Below, piece by piece: positions 18,170 to 59,586 of a DNA stretch of 64,000 nt. Each line of letters begins with the position of its first letter. Position 1 is the stretch's first letter. Below the pieces are notes generated by a model. The model saw only the letters and a list, made by a program, of their open reading frames with translations, searched no databases and was not told the DNA's origin. A program made the translations under genes and the position numbers. This DNA comes from Escherichia phage REP4. The stretch lies in the sequence record OQ174503.1; one strand, given 5' to 3'.

Positions 18170-18826
18170 ATGGCAGCACCTAGAATATCATTTTCGCCCT
18201 CTGATATTCTGTTGGGTGTTCTAGATCGCTTGTTCAAAGATAACGCTACCGGGAAGGTTCTTGCTTCCCGGGTAGCTGTCGTAATTCTTTTGTTTATAAT
18301 GGCGATTGTTTGGTATAGGGGAGATAGTTTCTTTGAGTACTATAAGCAATCAAAGTATGAAACATACAGTGAAATTATTGAAAAGGAAAGAAATGCACGC
18401 TTTGAATCTGTCGCCCTGGAACAACTCCAGATAGTTCATATATCATCTGAGGCAGACTTTAGTGCGGTGTATTCTTTCCGCCCTAAAAACTTAAACTATT
18501 TTGTTGATATTATAGCATATGAAGGAAGATTACCTTCAACAATAACCGAAAAATCACTTGGAGGATATCCTGTTGATAAAACTATGGATGAATATACAGT
18601 TCATTTAAATGGACGTCATTATTATTCCAACTCAAAATTTGCTTTTTTACCGACTAAAAAGCCTACTCCCGAAATAAATTACATGTACAGTTGTCCATAT
18701 TTTAATTTGGATAATATCTATGCTGGAACAATAACCATGTACTGGTATAGAAATGATCATATAAGTAATGACCGCCTTGAATCAATATGTTCTCAGGCGG
18801 CCAGAATATTAGGAAGGGCTAAATAA
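18170..18826 (+). CDS. t: Holin, 218 aa
   Basis: ORF track; near-identical to T4 holin T (MAAPRISFSPSDIL...VAVVILLFIMAIVWYRGDSFFEYYKQ). Confidence 0.96.
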   Translation: MAAPRISFSPSDILLGVLDRLFKDNATGKVLASRVAVVILLFIMAIVWYRGDSFFEYYKQSKYETYSEIIEKERNARFESVALEQLQIVHISSEADFSAVYSFRPKNLNYFVDIIAYEGRLPSTITEKSLGGYPVDKTMDEYTVHLNGRHYYSNSKFAFLPTKKPTPEINYMYSCPYFNLDNIYAGTITMYWYRNDHISNDRLESICSQAARILGRAK

Positions 18827-25401: not shown

Positions 25402-25608
25402 TCAATAATCCGCTAAAAGATCGACGATTGCATCACGAAGACACTTATTCGCAATACGTTTAAGAGCAATTTCAGTTTCTGGAGCATTTTGAATAATCAT
25501 CGAATTCAATTCAACCTCAGCAAACTGAAGTTCTTTAACTAATTCAGCTTTATATTTTCCTTGCCCTTTCTTAGCTTTTGCTCGTTTTAATTCAGCCGTA
25601 GTAAACAT
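25402..25608 (-). CDS. Hypothetical 68-aa protein (MFTTAELKRAKAKKGQGKYKAEL...)
   Basis: ORF track 25402..25707 shortened to ATG with RBS; N-terminal extension is promoter read-through. Confidence 0.55.
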   Translation of the reverse strand: MFTTAELKRAKAKKGQGKYKAELVKELQFAEVELNSMIIQNAPETEIALKRIANKCLRDAIVDLLADY

Positions 25609-25642
25609 TTTATTCTCCAAATCCGTATCAGTTGATAGTTGT

Positions 25643-25672
25643 ATAGTACCACAGTCCTTGTGGTATGTAAAC
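25643..25672 (-). promoter_or_regulatory. Early promoter (GTTTAC, 18 nt, TACTAT)
   Basis: Minus-strand GTTTAC at 25667-25672; conserved flank CCGTATCAGTTGATAGTTGTATAGTACC. Confidence 0.7.
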
Positions 25673-25688
25673 CGTTTTGTGAAAATTT

Positions 25689-26246
25689 TTAAATGGAAAG
25701 ATACCATCCGCTGTAGTTGCTTTTTCTTACAACCTTACGAAGGTCTTCTCTATCACCGATGAACTTCGGAGTGTACTGGATGACACCTGGGTGAATTTCT
25801 TTAGTGTTGAATATAATTATACAGTCAGCGACCTGATGATTCAGAATGGGCCCTAGATTTATTCCAGAACCGTATGGATACTCTCCGCTGCATCCTGTTG
25901 TTACAGAAATCCAACGTGAGTCAGTTTGATGTGTCTTAACTTCTACACGAAGCCCGCAGTATCTTGGATGCGCCAATACATCCCATGCGTATGTATACGG
26001 GTCATTAACATCCTCTTGGCCTTTGTTAACATACCCGCTTAACCAATCTGCTACAAAAAACTCTGCATACACAGCGATACGGCATCTTTCGATGACTTCT
26101 GCTTTATCCTGATTAGGATTTTGCTTTAAAGAGTATCTTGCTGTATCAGCAATTTTGACCTTCATTTCACTAGTCAAGTCATTGTTCGACATGGTAAATG
26201 CCGGAATCTGAAATAGTCTCTGTAAACCCGGATTCGTTTTCTGCAT
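25689..26246 (-). CDS. denB: Endonuclease IV DenB, 185 aa
   Basis: ORF track; size and position as T4 DenB, between ndd cluster and rIIB. Confidence 0.85.
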   Translation of the reverse strand: MQKTNPGLQRLFQIPAFTMSNNDLTSEMKVKIADTARYSLKQNPNQDKAEVIERCRIAVYAEFFVADWLSGYVNKGQEDVNDPYTYAWDVLAHPRYCGLRVEVKTHQTDSRWISVTTGCSGEYPYGSGINLGPILNHQVADCIIIFNTKEIHPGVIQYTPKFIGDREDLRKVVRKSNYSGWYLSI

Positions 26247-26306
26247 TAAACTTTCCTTTTACGTCGGAATCACTGATATTCATACAATAAATCATAACTT
26301 CCCTTA

Positions 26307-26329
26307 AAACAAAAGGGCCGAAGCCCCTT
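26307..26329 (-). terminator. Hairpin AAGGGGC-TTCG-GCCCTT plus U-run
   Basis: GC stem with tetraloop then TTTTGTTTT on the minus strand, immediately after the 64-aa ORF. Confidence 0.7.
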
Positions 26330-26332
26330 ATT

Positions 26333-26527
26333 TTATTTGAATTGTGCAATTCTTTTTTCTAAACAATCTGCGTAAGATTTCATTGAGATGAACTGTGAAA
26401 GCAGTAATTCTTGCTCAACTGCATTAACCGTTGAAAACTTTTCACTTTCTAAAAATTTGCTCAGCGCATTAATTTTGAGCATTAATTGATCGTATTCTTC
26501 TTTTACTCGTGCTTGATAACCTAACAT
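26333..26527 (-). CDS. Hypothetical 64-aa helical protein (denB.1 position)
   Basis: ORF track; ATG with RBS AAGGA; flanked by two GC hairpins. Confidence 0.6.
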   Translation of the reverse strand: MLGYQARVKEEYDQLMLKINALSKFLESEKFSTVNAVEQELLLSQFISMKSYADCLEKRIAQFK

Positions 26528-26540
26528 AATTTTCCTTAGT

Positions 26541-26558
26541 TAAGGGCCGAAGCCCTTA
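26541..26558 (-). other. RNA hairpin AAGGGC-TTCG-GCCCTT overlapping rIIB stop
   Basis: Perfect stem directly upstream of the SD of the next gene; no U-run, so likely a processing or stability element rather than a terminator. Confidence 0.45.
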
Positions 26559-27494
26559 TTTGAATTGTTCAGTAACGTCTTCAACTACTTCGTATTGGCA
26601 AGTACGCATTTTAGCATCGTTGTAATCAATCGGAATTGATACTACATCGCGAGGATGCACTTTAACTTTTACAACTCGACTGGTTGAACTACCAAAGTGA
26701 CGAATATAAGATTTAGAACACACATGCAGACCACGAGAACAAGTTTGTGTATCATCGTCATTCACACGAGTACGTGGCATTTTAACTACTTTACCAGGAC
26801 TGTTATCAAAAGTATTTGAATGGCAGTCAAAGTAATTACTGCGAACTACTTTCCAAGCATAGAAGTAACCGTCTTCTGTAATTTCAATATCGTTTGCTAC
26901 CAAGAAATCAAAGAGTCGAGATACCGCTTTTTGGCTTGGGTTTTCCAGCAGATTTTCCAAGAACGGAAAATAAAATTCAAAGTTTTCGCCTTTTTCCATC
27001 GAATCGAGAATACGATCAACTAAACCAGACCGCAATTCAATGTTTTGATAGAACAAGCTTCCACCTTCAATTCGAACATCACCGGAAATATATTTTTCAA
27101 CAGCGCGACGAACGTTAATTTTTTGTGCTGCTTCTTCCAATTTATCTGCAACAAGCAGGTTAAGAATTTCCTGGAAGTTTGAATGAGTATTAGGAGTTGC
27201 GTTATAAGTTACGCCGTCAACAGTAATTGAAATGAATTTTTTAGATGCATTCCAAATAATGTCAGATTTAGCAACTGGAGCAATAGCTACATCACTCTTA
27301 ACTTCAACTGTAATGTCACCGCTAATAGTAACTTTGGAGCGTTCAGCTTCTTCAGCATTTTTCAAAACACGACGGATGGTGTCAACCGATACATCTTTCC
27401 AATAAGCCAATTCCTGTTGGGTATAATTACCGCTTGAATACAGTTTAACAATTTCAGCTTGTTCGTTTTTGGTCAGGCATTTAATATTGTACAT
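26556..27494 (-). CDS. rIIB: rIIB protein (lysis inhibition / Rex exclusion), 312 aa
   Basis: ORF track; size identical to T4 rIIB; immediately downstream of rIIA. Confidence 0.93.
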   Translation of the reverse strand: MYNIKCLTKNEQAEIVKLYSSGNYTQQELAYWKDVSVDTIRRVLKNAEEAERSKVTISGDITVEVKSDVAIAPVAKSDIIWNASKKFISITVDGVTYNATPNTHSNFQEILNLLVADKLEEAAQKINVRRAVEKYISGDVRIEGGSLFYQNIELRSGLVDRILDSMEKGENFEFYFPFLENLLENPSQKAVSRLFDFLVANDIEITEDGYFYAWKVVRSNYFDCHSNTFDNSPGKVVKMPRTRVNDDDTQTCSRGLHVCSKSYIRHFGSSTSRVVKVKVHPRDVVSIPIDYNDAKMRTCQYEVVEDVTEQFK

Positions 27495-27505
27495 AATTTT
27501 CCTTA

Positions 27506-29683
27506 TTAGGCCGCAAGGGCCTTCATAGTTTTAGCGATTTGGGAAACTTCATCATCACTTAAAGAGTTGCGATAACCGATGAAGTCGGAAACAATACGGA
27601 ATTTCTTGGTAAACTCAGCAACCATTTTATCACTGTTTTTTGAAGCATTATTTGATAATACATCAAAAAGATTAGTTACTGTCCAGATGTCATGACCAAT
27701 GGTATCTTTTCCACCATTAAAATATACACCCTGTAATGAACTAACCATATTAGCGAGTCGTGTATATTCTTCAGAAACTTCATCTACACTGAAGTACTTC
27801 ATCATAAAATCTAACTCAGGATACTTGATAATTTTATCAATATATCGTTTAGCTGAACTTGAATAACCTACATACTTATCATAATCTACATCATCAAAAG
27901 CATCTACATATAAATCACGCAGAGTTTCAAAAATACATTGGCACTGACCAAGTTCTTTTACCTTTTTCTGCAAAAGCGGACGAATAACATAAAATTCATT
28001 AATGCCAATAAGATTAGCCATACGAGTCAAAATACTCGTAGATGGATGACAAAGCGATGTAGTACCATCCATAGAGAAAATATCAGAACGATGCATGTAT
28101 GCTACATAACCAGTAATTTCATCTGCTTCTGACGTAAGTGTAAATAGTTCCTCTTTTTCCCAGCGTCCGTCTTTAATTTCAAACTTAAATGCAGTAGCAG
28201 CTTTAGGACGAGGAGCTTTACTTTTAACTGCCTTCGGAATATAACTTTTAACTAAAGCTTCAATTTCTGACAAATAATGAATGTTAACTTCATCACTTTC
28301 AAACATTGCCATAATATCAGGAAGCAAATCAATCTGCGATTCTACTTCCGGATTAATAAACAAAAGGCGTTCATTGTGATGAATATTCAAAGTGTTATTA
28401 AATTCGCTATCATCTAATGCACGTGCTAATCCACGGACAATATTAACACGATTTTTAATATTATCAATAATGATATTAATTTTTGTTGTGTTAATACCAA
28501 ACAGACGATAACTTGATGCAACGGCTGAAGTTTCATGGCTTTGCTTAATGCGTTTCAGTCGAGGGTCAAGATTTACTTCATACACAACTCCTGCATTGCA
28601 TAACTTACTGTCAGGTTCAAACATGCTTTGCATCTTCTTATATGACAGATTTTTAGTCGTGAATTTGACCGAATTACTAATCATATAATCTCGAGCAGAA
28701 TATCCCATCTTCATTAATTCACGGTATGTATGACGAGGAGATGTAGATTCTTTAAATCGTTTTACATCTTCATTGAATGCCTTTTCACTAAGCTCTTTAA
28801 CACGCTCAATAATATTTTTACGAGTACGATCATCTAATGAAAGAGCTTCGCGTGATGGAGCAATATCAAGTGAACCCATTGGAAACTTAATGTAATTCAC
28901 TTCATTGCGGATGCTTAACCAGTTACGATCTCTAATAACACCTTCGATAGGATAAACAATGCCGCCATAGATAGCATACAATCCACCGCGATCTGGCCAG
29001 TATCTTTCTGGATTTACGCCGTAATAATCATCAAAATCCGGAAAATAATCAATTTCGCGGTCAAGACCGTTAATGATAGCTAAATCTTTGAATGGTCGCA
29101 TGATATAAGAAACTTCATAAGCAAAGTTTCTAAAATCTTTTTCTTCAACTGGAACTACGATTTCAATACCAGTTTTATCATTTGGACCCATTTCTTTTAC
29201 GAATGTAGGTTTAATTTGCGGACCGTCACCATCCATGTAAGCTACATAACCGCGAATTTCGCCTTTATGATATGAAGTAATACTGAATGTATCAGTATAA
29301 CTAAACGGGGATTTAGAACCTAAACCAAATCCGCCAATGAAATCGTTAGATTCAGCCTTAGATGAACTAAAGTATGAATTATACAACCCAGGAGAATTAT
29401 CATCACCCTGAATATCAAAATCGCTCATACCCGGACCAAAATCTCGACAAACAAATCGCGGATCTAATCGTCCTGGAACTTGAATGATAAATTTTTCAGG
29501 ATTTCCATTGAGAGCATGGGCATCAATCATGTTGGTAATCAATTCACGGACTACTGCACGAATCTTGTTTGTATACAAATCAGATGATAGAATTTTAAAT
29601 ACTTTAGGATTTGCTGCGATGCTAAATGCTTTTGATTTAGAACCATTACCAAGAATTGTTTCTTTTTCAGTGGTGATAATCAT
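27506..29683 (-). CDS. rIIA: rIIA protein, 725 aa
   Basis: ORF track; size identical to T4 rIIA; N-terminus [60 protein letters not shown]. Confidence 0.95.
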
Positions 29684-46848: not shown

Positions 46849-46879
46849 TTTCTTTTCTCCGCGATTAGCTGATAGAATT

Positions 46880-46909
46880 ACTATAACACAACTCTATCAG
46901 CTTGTAAAC
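46880..46909 (-). promoter_or_regulatory. Early promoter (GTTTAC, 18 nt, TATAGT)
   Basis: Minus-strand GTTTAC at 46904-46909. Confidence 0.65.
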
Positions 46910-47338: not shown

Positions 47339-47367
47339 AACAATCTCCTCATTTAACCAACAAGACT

Positions 47368-47397
47368 ACTATACCATAGTCTTGTCGGCTTGTAAAC
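47368..47397 (-). promoter_or_regulatory. Early promoter for dmd (GTTTAC, 18 nt, TATAGT)
   Basis: Minus-strand GTTTAC at 47392-47397. Confidence 0.65.
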
Positions 47398-48833: not shown

Positions 48834-49178
48834 TTAAAAGAATTTAAATTTTTTCTTTGACCTTTTATTAAATGCATCTTGCAGTTGCATTGTAATACAT
48901 TTTTCTACATGAGGAGCTAACTCAGCTTTTCTTTCTTGGTCAAGAACAGCAAAGTCCATTACGACTTTTCCATCAACCCAATCTAATTTTGTCACATACA
49001 CAATGTGTGTAGAACCATCTTCTAGTTTAATGACAATCTCCTGGATAACATTTTCCATGGCAGATTTAATTATCTTAAGAGATTCATTAAAAAGACGTTC
49101 TTTTCTTTCTTCTTCCCCCTCCGAAGAGGGGGATTCGTCGATAATTTCTAGATCTAAATCTAAATCATCTTTATTCAT
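48834..49178 (-). CDS. 40: Head vertex assembly chaperone gp40, 114 aa
   Basis: ORF track 48834..49196 shortened to ATG at MNKDDLDLDLEIIDESPSSEGEE, overlapping the uvsX stop. Confidence 0.8.
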   Translation of the reverse strand: MNKDDLDLDLEIIDESPSSEGEEERKERLFNESLKIIKSAMENVIQEIVIKLEDGSTHIVYVTKLDWVDGKVVMDFAVLDQERKAELAPHVEKCITMQLQDAFNKRSKKKFKFF

Positions 49179-59531: not shown

Positions 59532-59586
59532 GTTTTTCCTCCATAGAGATTATACTCTAATAAATTAAAGCATAATCTCTTATAAA

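Follow-up and report, generated by a model that had tools for sequence, protein, structure and literature searches.

Two C(UUCG)G hairpins around denB.1 in a T4-type phage: a probable leaky terminator and a putative exonuclease barrier at the rIIB 3′ end

The REP sequence between malE and malF was reportedly described in 1987, by Newbury, Higgins and colleagues, as an intercistronic stabiliser hairpin. REP sequences, which host proteins bind, are imperfect palindromes of greater length than the hairpins considered here, and such non-terminator intercistronic hairpins are proposed to block 3′-to-5′ exonucleases, so that the RNA of the upstream cistron outlives that of the downstream one. Closer to the present case are the C(UUCG)G hairpins of phage T4 (Tuerk et al. 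1988, PNAS 85:1364). According to PMC8948821 (citing Tuerk et al. 1988) and PMC4371310, CUUCGG hairpins are frequent between T4 genes, and the C(UUCG)G motif is unusually stable to heat and blocks reverse transcriptase. In PMC8948821 the family is defined by flanks that can pair over 2-8 nt, with G-U pairs permitted, and the mRNA of gene 32 is said, again after Tuerk et al. 1988, to be stabilised by a 5′ CUUCGG hairpin. A further related system is the PeSL (promoter-early stem-loop) of T4-like phages (Arbiol et al. 2010, PMC2839356; Comeau et al. 2014, PMC4122927), in which a stem-loop is followed in PST/T4 by a sigma-70-like early promoter, TTTACW-N17-TAYWAT (PMC4122927).

The locus analysed here belongs to Escherichia phage REP4 (OQ174503.1), of which we studied a stretch of 64,000 nucleotides, called the window below. 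On its minus strand the order is rIIB, hairpin U, a 64-aa ORF, hairpin D and denB. The ORF is denB.1, a known gene of phage T4, and the region is the rIIB-denB.1-denB part of a T4-type (Tequatrovirus) genome. The rIIB CDS (26556..27494, minus strand, 312 aa, from the ORF list), which encodes the RIIB lysis inhibitor in T4-type phages, is 92-97% identical in DNA to that of T4-type phages. Both the denB.1 CDS (26333..26527, minus strand, 64 aa, C-terminus ..IAQFK*) and that of denB, endonuclease IV (25689..26246, minus strand, 185 aa), come from the ORF list and the T4 annotation, where denB.1 has the same place. The denB.1 protein matches Pfam PF21825 (E = 7e-20) and has homologues in 661 phage records (tblastn); T4 DenB.1 (P39251) was detected in published T4 proteomics, as was DenB. 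The explanation that we favour, and consider fairly likely as a whole, is that D is a leaky terminator, that U is an exonuclease barrier at the 3′ end of rIIB, that denB.1 is co-regulated with rIIB, and that the flanks of the two hairpins are copies of each other.

Direct reading and folding confirm the two GC hairpins that the initial annotation had placed around the 64-aa ORF. Hairpin U (UAAGGGC-UUCG-GCCCUUA, 26541..26558, minus strand) consists of a C(UUCG)G tetraloop on a stem of 7 bp. It opens with the TAA stop codon of rIIB (26558-26556), its 3′ end lies 13 nt upstream of the denB.1 ATG, and its 3′ tail, ACUAAGGAAAAUUAUG, supplies denB.1 with its SD and start codon, with 3-6 nt between stem and SD and no U-run (ACUAAGG, or ACUAAGGAAAAUU). 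The overlap with the rIIB stop, the missing U-run and the abutting SD, all pointed out at the outset, can thus be read from the sequence. Hairpin D (AAGGGGC-UUCG-GCCCUUU plus the U-tract UUUUGUUUU, 26306..26329, minus strand) starts 3 nt past the denB.1 stop codon. Its stem-loop (26329..26312, 7-bp stem) is continued by UGUUUU, the U-tract UUUUGUUUU lies at 26314..26306, and the next SD follows after about 8-16 nt. U folds at -10.9 kcal/mol (z = -3.8, equalled by 0/200 shuffles) and D at -12.8 kcal/mol (z = -2.3), and in a context of 180-190 nt the loop-closing pair forms with a probability of 0.986 in U and 0.997 in D.

Both hairpins carry GGCTTCGGCC on the minus strand, that is, a CUUCGG loop with its C-G closing pair. 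This motif, the GGGC-tetraloop-GCCC core already recognised in the initial annotation, occurs 6 times in the window versus 0.03 expected, and CTTCGG 33 times versus 12.4; none of 100 shuffles reached either count. The window, about 93% coding, holds 11 CUUCGG hairpins of at least 6 bp, and nine of them are intergenic and on the sense strand. Eight of these nine begin no more than 4 nt from a stop codon, seven are devoid of a U-run, and several directly precede the next SD. Within the T4 intercistronic C(UUCG)G family, whose loop, closing pair and GC-rich 7-bp flanks they share, U and D are ordinary cases. Like that family, the hairpins of the window are intercistronic, on the sense strand and over-represented, a few with a U-tract and most without. 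The sole extra feature here is that the U and D copies also share flanking coding and SD sequence. The paired hairpins are therefore real but already known, the family having been described in 1988, and they carry little weight as a discovery: D is annotated in the T4 GenBank record (X75802.1, T4D, stem_loop 358-377), and a close relative (NC_054922) has both U and D labelled as putative terminators. A hairpin also stands at the rIIA-rIIB junction (27492..27522, minus strand), which reads, from sequence and folding, as a GC hairpin AGGCC-CUUGC-GGCCU (27522..27508), UAA and UAAGGAAAAUUAUG, the rIIB initiation region. The hairpin folds at -8.0 kcal/mol, and we left it out of the family because it is not significant against shuffles (z = -0.44).

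Across the whole window the orientation of the CUUCGG hairpins tracks the gene strand. This bias bears on the idea that the two hairpins terminate antisense transcription on the plus strand, which we regard as extremely improbable. There, T-rich tails follow both hairpins and give positive terminator scans (TAAGGGCCGAAGCCCTTA TTTGAATTGT; AAGGGCCGAAGCCCCTT ATTTTATTTG), and the plus-strand version of U folds at -11.9 kcal/mol. However, no plus-strand gene lies between 18827 and 36280, and the nearest plus-strand late-promoter motif (12823) is upstream of the plus-strand gene block ending at 18826; with neither a gene nor a late promoter nearby, the idea was rejected. In addition, the special stability of UUCG is limited to the minus-strand RNA, because the plus-strand loop is CGAA.

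Hairpin D has the anatomy of an intrinsic terminator. As in the Rho-independent terminators of E. coli and its phages, a GC-rich stem and a 4-nt loop are followed immediately by UUUUGUUUU, here 3 nt after a stop codon; GCCCUUUUGUUUU comes after the loop, a simple terminator scan of the minus strand was positive for D, and annotations of relatives list D as a terminator. The anatomy supports the terminator first proposed on seeing the downstream hairpin. D differs from the described terminators in that it must be leaky, because no recognisable denB promoter follows it and DenB is made in T4. Most likely, then, D is a leaky intrinsic (Rho-independent) terminator, and denB, without a promoter of its own after D, would be expressed by read-through.

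Searches for sigma-70 promoters, for MotA boxes plus -10 and for late TATAAATA motifs found none from the rIIB start to denB, and a separate denB.1 promoter was rejected on this ground. The sole MotA-box-plus-minus-10 match on the minus strand from 27700 to 25600 is TGCTTCAAAAAACAGTGATAAAAT, found by regex scan at the rIIA 3′ end (27624..27647, minus strand), where the middle promoter of rIIB would be expected; rIIB is under middle promoter control (PMC9697503). The three genes rIIB, denB.1 and denB appear to be transcribed as a single unit from promoters upstream of rIIB.

The region 3′ of hairpin D is a hot spot for indels. It contains a 38-codon remnant ORF (26179..26295, minus strand), recognised from the ORF list and by comparison with ime09 and Sf24, which begins like a DUF7418 gene, retaining its SD, its ATG and 13 initial codons, and continues after codon 13 as an out-of-frame fusion across the denB start. 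The DUF7418 gene is complete (109 aa) in both ime09 and Sf24, and the intact ORF of ime09 matches Pfam PF24193.

Hairpin U, in contrast with described terminators, has no U-tract, and the U-run is absent from every Tequatrovirus and Gaprivervirus copy examined. It could still be a partial terminator or attenuator, at which early-mode polymerase stops or pauses after rIIB, denB.1 and denB being reached later. Were this true, the expression of denB.1 and denB would be set apart from that of rIIB, which is near the idea of the initial annotation; we judge it unlikely. By default, featureCounts counts reads without regard to strand. These default settings were used for the T4 omics tables of PMC9697503, where rIIB RNA is classed as early and denB.1 and denB RNA as middle (Table S2), the latter two among only 21 middle-class genes. 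The class difference across U, apparently obtained by unstranded counting, is thus a weak hint, which attenuation at U or a promoter that has escaped recognition could explain. In KAW1E185, with UUAUCAUAUU as the tail, one pipeline also labels U as a putative terminator. The tail in the window, however, has no U-tract and the terminator scan of U was negative; in G2133 (MK327928), whose U has the stem, loop and 3′ tail of the window, the ARNOLD annotation covers only D. Moreover, the rIIB stop lies inside the stem, so a ribosome trailing the polymerase would block formation of the hairpin, and seven of the nine intergenic CUUCGG hairpins are without a U-run, yet the genes that follow them must be expressed.

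On the distribution of U, our comparative sample was drawn from INPHARED records (about 30, taken from the ~500 of Tequatrovirus and from more distant T4-like genera), which were used instead of the 8 rIIB loci in IMG/VR. A hairpin stands directly after the rIIB stop in Tequatrovirus, Gaprivervirus, Mosigvirus, Mosugukvirus, Kanagawavirus, Marfavirus, a Klebsiella phage and an Acinetobacter Lazarusvirus, and it is kept with compensatory changes in 8/9 of the T4-like lineages sampled, whether denB.1 is present or absent; RB69, ESh27, Klebsiella K65 and Acinetobacter Apostate have it without denB.1. The stems vary (GGGC, GGGGC, GGGGAC, GGAGCC, GAGGAGCC), as do the loops (UUCG, UUUG, UCAG, GUAA). 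In an alignment of these hairpins, which leans towards structure because it was anchored on the loops by hand, 89% of the cells are paired, 5/7 pairs show compensatory change, and the covariation score is 0.50 versus 0.24 in shuffles, none of 500 shuffles reaching 0.50. Within Tequatrovirus the region is 91-97% identical and its conservation there therefore proves little. In Pectobacterium phage PM2 the same bracket is found with other loops, and a U-run stands only downstream of denB.1, none upstream. Two cases lack a strong hairpin: in CF1-like phages it is absent, the stop codon of rIIB and the start codon of denB.1 sharing bases (TAATG), and in T4 itself U is crippled (GGC/GCC, -4.0 kcal/mol), so a strong hairpin is not indispensable.

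These comparisons indicate that, across T4-like genera, hairpin U goes with the rIIB 3′ end and does not serve denB.1 as a regulator of its own; the view of U as a denB.1 element is unsupported, since the hairpin follows rIIB in denB.1-less phages and its T4 copy is crippled. For RNase III, a stem of 7 bp is too short. The RegB motif GGAG is absent from both intergenic regions, and an Rfam scan of 25500-27800 at E <= 1 returned zero matches. Of the "processing or stability element" suggested initially, the processing half is thus unsupported, whereas a stabilising role is plausible and fits the general proposals made for T4 C(UUCG)G hairpins. Most plausibly, U would act as a barrier to 3′ exonucleases rather than as a processing site. 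By analogy with the REP stabilisers, it may be a non-terminator intercistronic hairpin on which such exonucleases stall, with the difference that it is a minimal 7-bp tetraloop hairpin.

The same distribution weighs against a role of U on the 5′ side of denB.1, as an SD insulator, a ribosome standby site or a hairpin that protects a 5′ end after an upstream cut. This reading, in which U and D would delimit a stable, independently expressed denB.1 mini-message, seems to us quite unlikely. In its favour, the stem of U stops 3 nt upstream of the SD, several other CUUCGG hairpins of the window lie directly before an SD or about 10-30 nt from the next start codon, and the rIIA-rIIB junction has a similar layout of hairpin and then SD; the gene 32 mRNA offers a precedent for stabilisation by a 5′ CUUCGG hairpin, according to PMC8948821. 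On the other hand, the hairpin follows rIIB also where denB.1 is absent, the denB.1 homologues of CF1-like phages have none, and the rIIA hairpin does not stand out significantly from shuffles. No upstream cleavage motif was identified either, there being no GGAG and a stem too short for RNase III. Finally, the mean unpaired probability from SD to AUG is 0.66 in the wild type versus 0.60-0.71 in three in silico variants that destroy hairpin U; SD accessibility is barely altered, and the SD-insulator function is unsupported by the model.

The translation initiation region of denB.1 points to regulation together with rIIB. RegA sites are A/U-rich and unstructured and include the AUG and a 5′ poly(A) run; the operators of rIIB and gene 44 are AAAAUUAUGUAC and AAAUUAUGAUU, respectively (PMC3014915). 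An exact match search found two copies in the window of the 13-nt region AAGGAAAAUUAUG, one at denB.1 (26525..26537, minus strand) and one at rIIB (27492-27504), so that the denB.1 initiation region, AAGGAAAATTATG, is verbatim that of rIIB. It agrees in sequence with the RegA sites described, its mean unpaired probability being the 0.66 given above, and the denB.1 region AAAAUUAUGUUA / GGAAAAUUAUGUUA, a candidate RegA site, matches the rIIB operator at 10/12 positions, RegA sites being low in information (A/U-rich plus AUG). A mention of denB.1 as a RegA target was not found in the literature searched. The gene 44 operator sequence also occurs in ime09, within the initiation region that follows hairpin D. 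Translation of denB.1 is thus probably regulated together with that of rIIB and not apart from it, and RegA may be the regulator. The initial annotation had proposed that denB.1 expression is set separately from that of rIIB; the identical initiation regions and the lack of an intergenic promoter argue against this, as does the nearly unchanged SD accessibility.

The similarity of U and D reaches past the hairpins: ACAATTCAAATAA precedes both, and a TAAGG-type SD and an ATG follow both, AAGGAAAAUUAUG after U and AAGGGAAGUUAUG after D containing SD and start codon in each case. Repeat search and alignment gave direct repeats of 16 and 25 nt with a spacing of 223-229 nt. The upstream 16-nt copy, TGAACAATTCAAATAA (26556..26571, minus strand), is the end of the rIIB CDS with its stop, and the downstream copy, TGCACAATTCAAATAA (26333..26348, minus strand), that of denB.1. 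Both proteins end in QFK* because the direct repeat covers both CDS ends, and this shared ending is found in Tequatrovirus only. In G2133 the denB.1 end is identical to the rIIB end over 30 nt. As to orthology, the U-tract, SD and ATGATT.. of hairpin D align with the post-rIIB hairpin of RB69, ESh27 and the Klebsiella phage, and the tail of hairpin U aligns with the Gaprivervirus hairpin upstream of denB.1. Within the Tequatrovirus lineage, the 3′ end of rIIB and its hairpin were thus probably copied onto the denB.1 end; the near-identity of the hairpins and flanks would reflect this historical copying, and the copies probably still exchange sequence.

Such repeats raise the question of a role at the DNA level, in which the stop-hairpin-SD-ATG repeat would be the boundary of a promoter-less cassette and a recombination substrate, PeSL-like, any RNA function being secondary or relict. 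There is some resemblance to PeSLs: in a plastic region, small non-essential ORFs are bordered by a repeated stem-loop with an SD and a start codon at its 3′ end, and G2133, where 30 nt of the D flank have been converted to the U flank, carries signs of recombination between copies. The direct repeats, the QFK* ending peculiar to Tequatrovirus, the presence or absence of denB.1 between genera, which switches exactly at the hairpin, and the hot spot after D point the same way, as does the PeSL precedent (PMC4122927). Nevertheless, we think this role very unlikely. Only 3-20 nt separate the stem-loops from their SDs, with no sigma-70-like promoter, so the feature that defines a PeSL is missing, and the consensus stem of the PST/T4 PeSL (AGNA-loop-TCNT) is unlike U and D; their membership of the class was rejected, as no minus-strand promoter hit was obtained between 26560 and 26246. 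Within Tequatrovirus we found no sign of excision or shuffling of denB.1. Almost every record of the genus has the gene (tblastn gave 496 hits at >=80% identity, versus ~501 DNA hits), so its excision must be infrequent, and the indel breakpoints seen, including the junctions of the Sf24 duplication and of the DUF7418 deletions, are inside ORFs, away from the hairpins. Furthermore, the compensatory changes seen between genera speak for pairing itself, in RNA or DNA, as the object of selection.

Under the leaky-terminator and barrier explanation that we prefer, hairpin D would end part of the rII transcripts after denB.1; these RNAs would gain an exonuclease-resistant 3′ end, and the remaining transcripts would run into denB. 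Hairpin U, lacking a U-tract, would not be an efficient terminator and would mark the rIIB 3′ end throughout the T4-like phages. Exonucleases moving 3′-to-5′ from a downstream end, whether terminated or cleaved, would stall at this very stable hairpin, and the rIIB segment would outlive the distal one, a segmental mRNA stabilisation. As ribosomes ending at the rIIB stop melt U, it can act only on ribosome-free RNA. Meanwhile denB.1 would be translated from a copy of the ribosome-binding, RegA-type region of rIIB.

In conclusion, our analysis clarifies the record of this locus: the 64-aa ORF is denB.1, a real, expressed gene, hairpin U is, by comparison across genera, the 3′-end hairpin of rIIB, and the denB.1 initiation region is a copy of that of rIIB. 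A bolder proposal, which we advance tentatively and consider doubtful although possible, is that the stop codon, the C(UUCG)G hairpin and UAAGGAAAAUUAUG make up a portable promoter-less module for expression and recombination, RegA-type control included, by which denB.1 was recruited into the rII unit. The module would have been laid down at rIIB-denB.1 and denB.1-DUF7418, with a looser version at rIIA-rIIB, and its copies would exchange by gene conversion, as in G2133; denB.1 would have been recruited by copying of the rIIB 3′ end and would be co-regulated with rIIB, and its hairpin-bracketed RNA segment might in addition be kept as a discrete, stable RNA. If this is true, such a recombining, RegA-controlled module would give the PeSL idea of small-gene shuffling in T4-like phages a modest counterpart without a promoter.

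The hairpins lie in a genome segment of the T4 type (Tequatrovirus) whose gene order at this locus is that of T4: rIIA (29683-27506), rIIB (27494-26556), a 64-aa ORF (26527-26333) and denB (26246-25689), all on the minus strand. Over the 551 bases around them, more than 490 records of T4-like phages match with 92-97% identity. The 64-aa ORF is T4 denB.1 (167743-167937 in T4) and a real gene. Its product matches Pfam PF21825 (E = 7e-20), 661 phage records have a tblastn hit (with at least 80% identity in 496), and the intensity of the T4 DenB.1 protein (P39251) climbs over the infection time course (PMC9697503, supplement). In Escherichia phage vB_EcoM_PTE-Eco15, a 13-nt deletion breaks denB.1 and leaves a 17-codon ORF, and the annotators of that record did not call the gene; either it is dispensable there or the sequence contains an error.

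The initial annotation had described both hairpins correctly, in sequence, fold, overlap with the stop codon and adjoining Shine-Dalgarno sequence (SD). The upstream hairpin, U (UAAGGGC-UUCG-GCCCUUA, 26558-26541, minus strand), has the rIIB TAA stop codon as its first three bases and, as claimed, no U-run, its tail ACUAAGGAAAAUUAUG supplying denB.1 with its SD and start codon. The downstream hairpin, D (AAGGGGC-UUCG-GCCCUUU, 26329-26312, minus strand), begins 3 nt past the denB.1 stop codon and continues into UUUUGUUUU. With this U-run, and a consensus scan of the gene strand that finds it terminator-like, its reading as a terminator is sound; the same scan made no call at U on that strand. 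The fold energies are -10.9 kcal/mol for U (z = -3.8) and -12.8 kcal/mol for D (z = -2.3), and in sequence context both have a predicted formation probability of at least 0.986. The T4D record X75802.1 already lists D as a stem_loop, and NC_054922 carries putative terminator annotations on both hairpins. In MK327928 the ARNOLD annotation is on D only, and U there has the stem, loop and 3′ tail of the window.

Both hairpins belong to the C(UUCG)G family first noticed in T4 mRNA, a known class that is commoner than chance: the window has 6 copies of GGCTTCGGCC where 0.03 are expected, and 33 of CTTCGG where 12.4 are. Nine of the 11 CUUCGG hairpins with a stem of at least 6 bp are intergenic and on the sense strand, though coding sequence makes up about 93% of the window. 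Of these nine, eight start no more than 4 nt from a stop codon, seven (17318, 23664, 26558, 31839, 56004, 58202 and 62911) have no U-run, and several of the latter directly precede the next SD. Passages of PMC4371310 and PMC8948821 (citing Tuerk et al. 1988) describe T4 intergenic regions as especially rich in such hairpins and report various roles for them, such as the stabilisation of gene 32 mRNA by a 5′ CUUCGG hairpin. The sole strong CUUCGG hairpin of the window outside intergenic DNA (UCCCCCUC-UUCG-GAGGGGGA, 49114-49133, minus strand, -15.9 kcal/mol) lies within the coding sequence 48834-49178. Three long hairpins on the minus strand (46867-46902, 47355-47390 and 59545-59580; stems of 15-16 bp, -17 to -21 kcal/mol) stand 6-9 nt past a stop codon and 13-18 nt ahead of the next ATG. 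In the first two the loops are alike (GUUAUA, GGUAUA) and a GGAG-containing SD comes after the hairpin. These hairpins could be processing or translational-control sites.

The region downstream of rIIB was compared in about 30 relatives. In the 14 Tequatrovirus phages examined, rIIB is followed by U without a U-run, then denB.1, then D with a U-run. Gaprivervirus (UPEC01, VR20) and Kanagawavirus (PEi20, Kosakonia 305) have GGGGC-UUCG-GCCCC without a U-run, and Klebsiella Kpn BM7 (Marfavirus) has GGGGAC-UUCG-GUCCCC with the U-rich tail UUUCUUAU, each time ahead of a denB.1 with no hairpin behind. Pectobacterium PM2 has GGGC-UCAG-GCCC without a U-run, denB.1, then GGCC-GCAA-GGCC with UUUUUU; this bracket (918-953 and 1153-1190 of its locus, L027), with loops UCAG and GCAA and a U-run downstream only, keeps the layout and not the sequence. 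RB69 and ESh27 (Mosigvirus) and Klebsiella K65, which lack denB.1, carry a hairpin with a U-run and then a DUF7418-type ORF, and in Acinetobacter Apostate a GNRA-loop hairpin without a U-run leads directly into the denB SD. CF1-like phages (IMG/VR contigs L009-L011) have no hairpin, the rIIB stop overlapping the start of the denB.1-like ORF (TAATG). This overlap, taken with denB.1 being the neighbour of rIIB in at least six genera, hints at a functional link between the DenB.1 and rII proteins.

Thirteen distinct rIIB-end hairpins were aligned on their loops, in an alignment that is biased towards structure by being built on hairpins. Of its cells 89% are paired, compensatory changes occur in 5 of 7 pairs, and covariation scores 0.50, versus 0.24 for shuffled alignments (0.50 being reached by 0 of 500). 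In a further alignment (A1), the tail of D (U-tract, SD, ATGATT..) corresponds to the RB69-type terminator after rIIB, and the tail of U to the Gaprivervirus hairpin ahead of denB.1. On these comparative grounds, we conclude that U is tied to the 3′ end of rIIB and not to denB.1. In T4 (2455-2470 of locus L001, minus strand) U is 1 nt shorter (GGC-UUCG-GCC) and folds at -4.0 kcal/mol, versus -9.5 to -11.3 kcal/mol in the other Tequatroviruses examined. Two loci (L006 and L007) have the loop variant UUUG.

In Tequatrovirus, ACAATTCAAATAA stands ahead of both hairpins, so that before the stop codon rIIB ends in ..EQFK and denB.1 in ..AQFK; in the other genera examined, denB.1 ends in ..YFGE, ..ARF, ..QRF or ..SYF. 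This is most simply read as a copying event in the Tequatrovirus lineage, by which denB.1 acquired at its end the 3′ end of rIIB together with the hairpin. In Escherichia phage vB_EcoM_G2133 the denB.1 end equals the phage's own rIIB end over 30 nt (GAACAATTTAAATAAGGGCTTCGGCCCTT, versus the usual GCACAATTCAAATAAAATAAGGGC), apparently the tract of a gene conversion between the two repeats; the copies thus still interact. Such exchange resembles the shuffling mediated by promoter-early stem-loop (PeSL) cassettes of T4-like phages (PMC4122927), which are defined by a promoter, whereas the unit here has none. Because of this, and because denB.1 is nearly universal within Tequatrovirus, we rejected its classification as a PeSL.

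In Shigella phage Sf24 (1840-2200 of locus L002), a tandem duplication runs from the 3′ half of denB.1 through hairpin D into the DUF7418 gene, whose 5′ half it includes, and creates a third CUUCGG hairpin, with the junction inside the ORFs and not at a hairpin. Past hairpin D (26179-26295, minus strand), the window and T4 retain only the SD, ATG and 13 codons of the DUF7418 gene, in the window as an out-of-frame fusion across the denB start. An intact copy (109 aa, PF24193) is present in ime09, Sf24 and G2133 (compare L003, 1201-1530, and L002, 1909-2503). A larger deletion, unlike that of the window and T4, is seen in Sf22, CHD94UKE2 and PYps10T; loss of the gene has therefore happened more than once.

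From the rIIB start to denB, the gene strand has no match to a sigma-70, MotA-type or late promoter, and the only Mot-box promoter match lies upstream of rIIB, at 27647; denB.1 and denB must therefore be reached by transcription through rIIB. Since DenB protein is abundant in T4 (PMC9697503, supplement), D must be leaky. The one experimental hint of unlike expression across U is that T4 rIIB RNA is classed as early, and denB.1 and denB among only 21 'middle' genes, from reads counted by featureCounts with default settings (PMC9697503, Table S2). The difference in class might be explained by antisense late RNA. Unstranded counting is the featureCounts default, and the hint is weakened because the reads were presumably counted in this way.

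The denB.1 initiation region AAGGAAAAUUAUG (26525-26537, minus strand) is an exact copy of that of rIIB (27492-27504, minus strand), an identity of 13 nt (AAGGAAAATTATG). The window holds these two exact copies and, at no more than one mismatch, 4 matches against 0.4 expected. As the region also agrees at 10 of 12 positions with the published rIIB operator of the translational repressor RegA, AAAAUUAUGUAC (PMC3014915), denB.1 may be a RegA target that has gone unrecognised. When U is destroyed in silico, the SD and AUG are predicted to stay about as exposed as before (0.66 versus 0.60-0.71). The proposal that U sets denB.1 expression separately from rIIB is thus not borne out, as there is no promoter between them, the initiation region is that of rIIB and SD exposure barely depends on U.

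The initial interpretation of the hairpins is, as a whole, partly supported. U had been proposed as a processing or stability element; stability is plausible, and processing is not supported, there being no RegB GGAG site in either spacer (rIIB/denB.1 and denB.1/denB) and no match in an Rfam scan of the locus. Most likely, D acts as a leaky intrinsic terminator and 3′-end stabiliser behind denB.1, and U as a very stable, non-terminating hairpin at which 3′-to-5′ exonucleases would stall, so that the rIIB segment would outlive the distal RNA. Bacterial operons have intercistronic stabiliser hairpins, and the proposed working of U is alike. These functions are inferred, while the structures, where they lie, how they are conserved and the lack of other signals are established. 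However, the weakened U of T4, the CF1-like phages devoid of such a hairpin and the necessary melting of U by ribosomes terminating at the rIIB stop all count against a strong role. Translation of denB.1 would probably be governed as that of rIIB, RegA included. The hairpin pair is of a kind already known and is partly annotated already, and for this reason is of minor interest as a finding.
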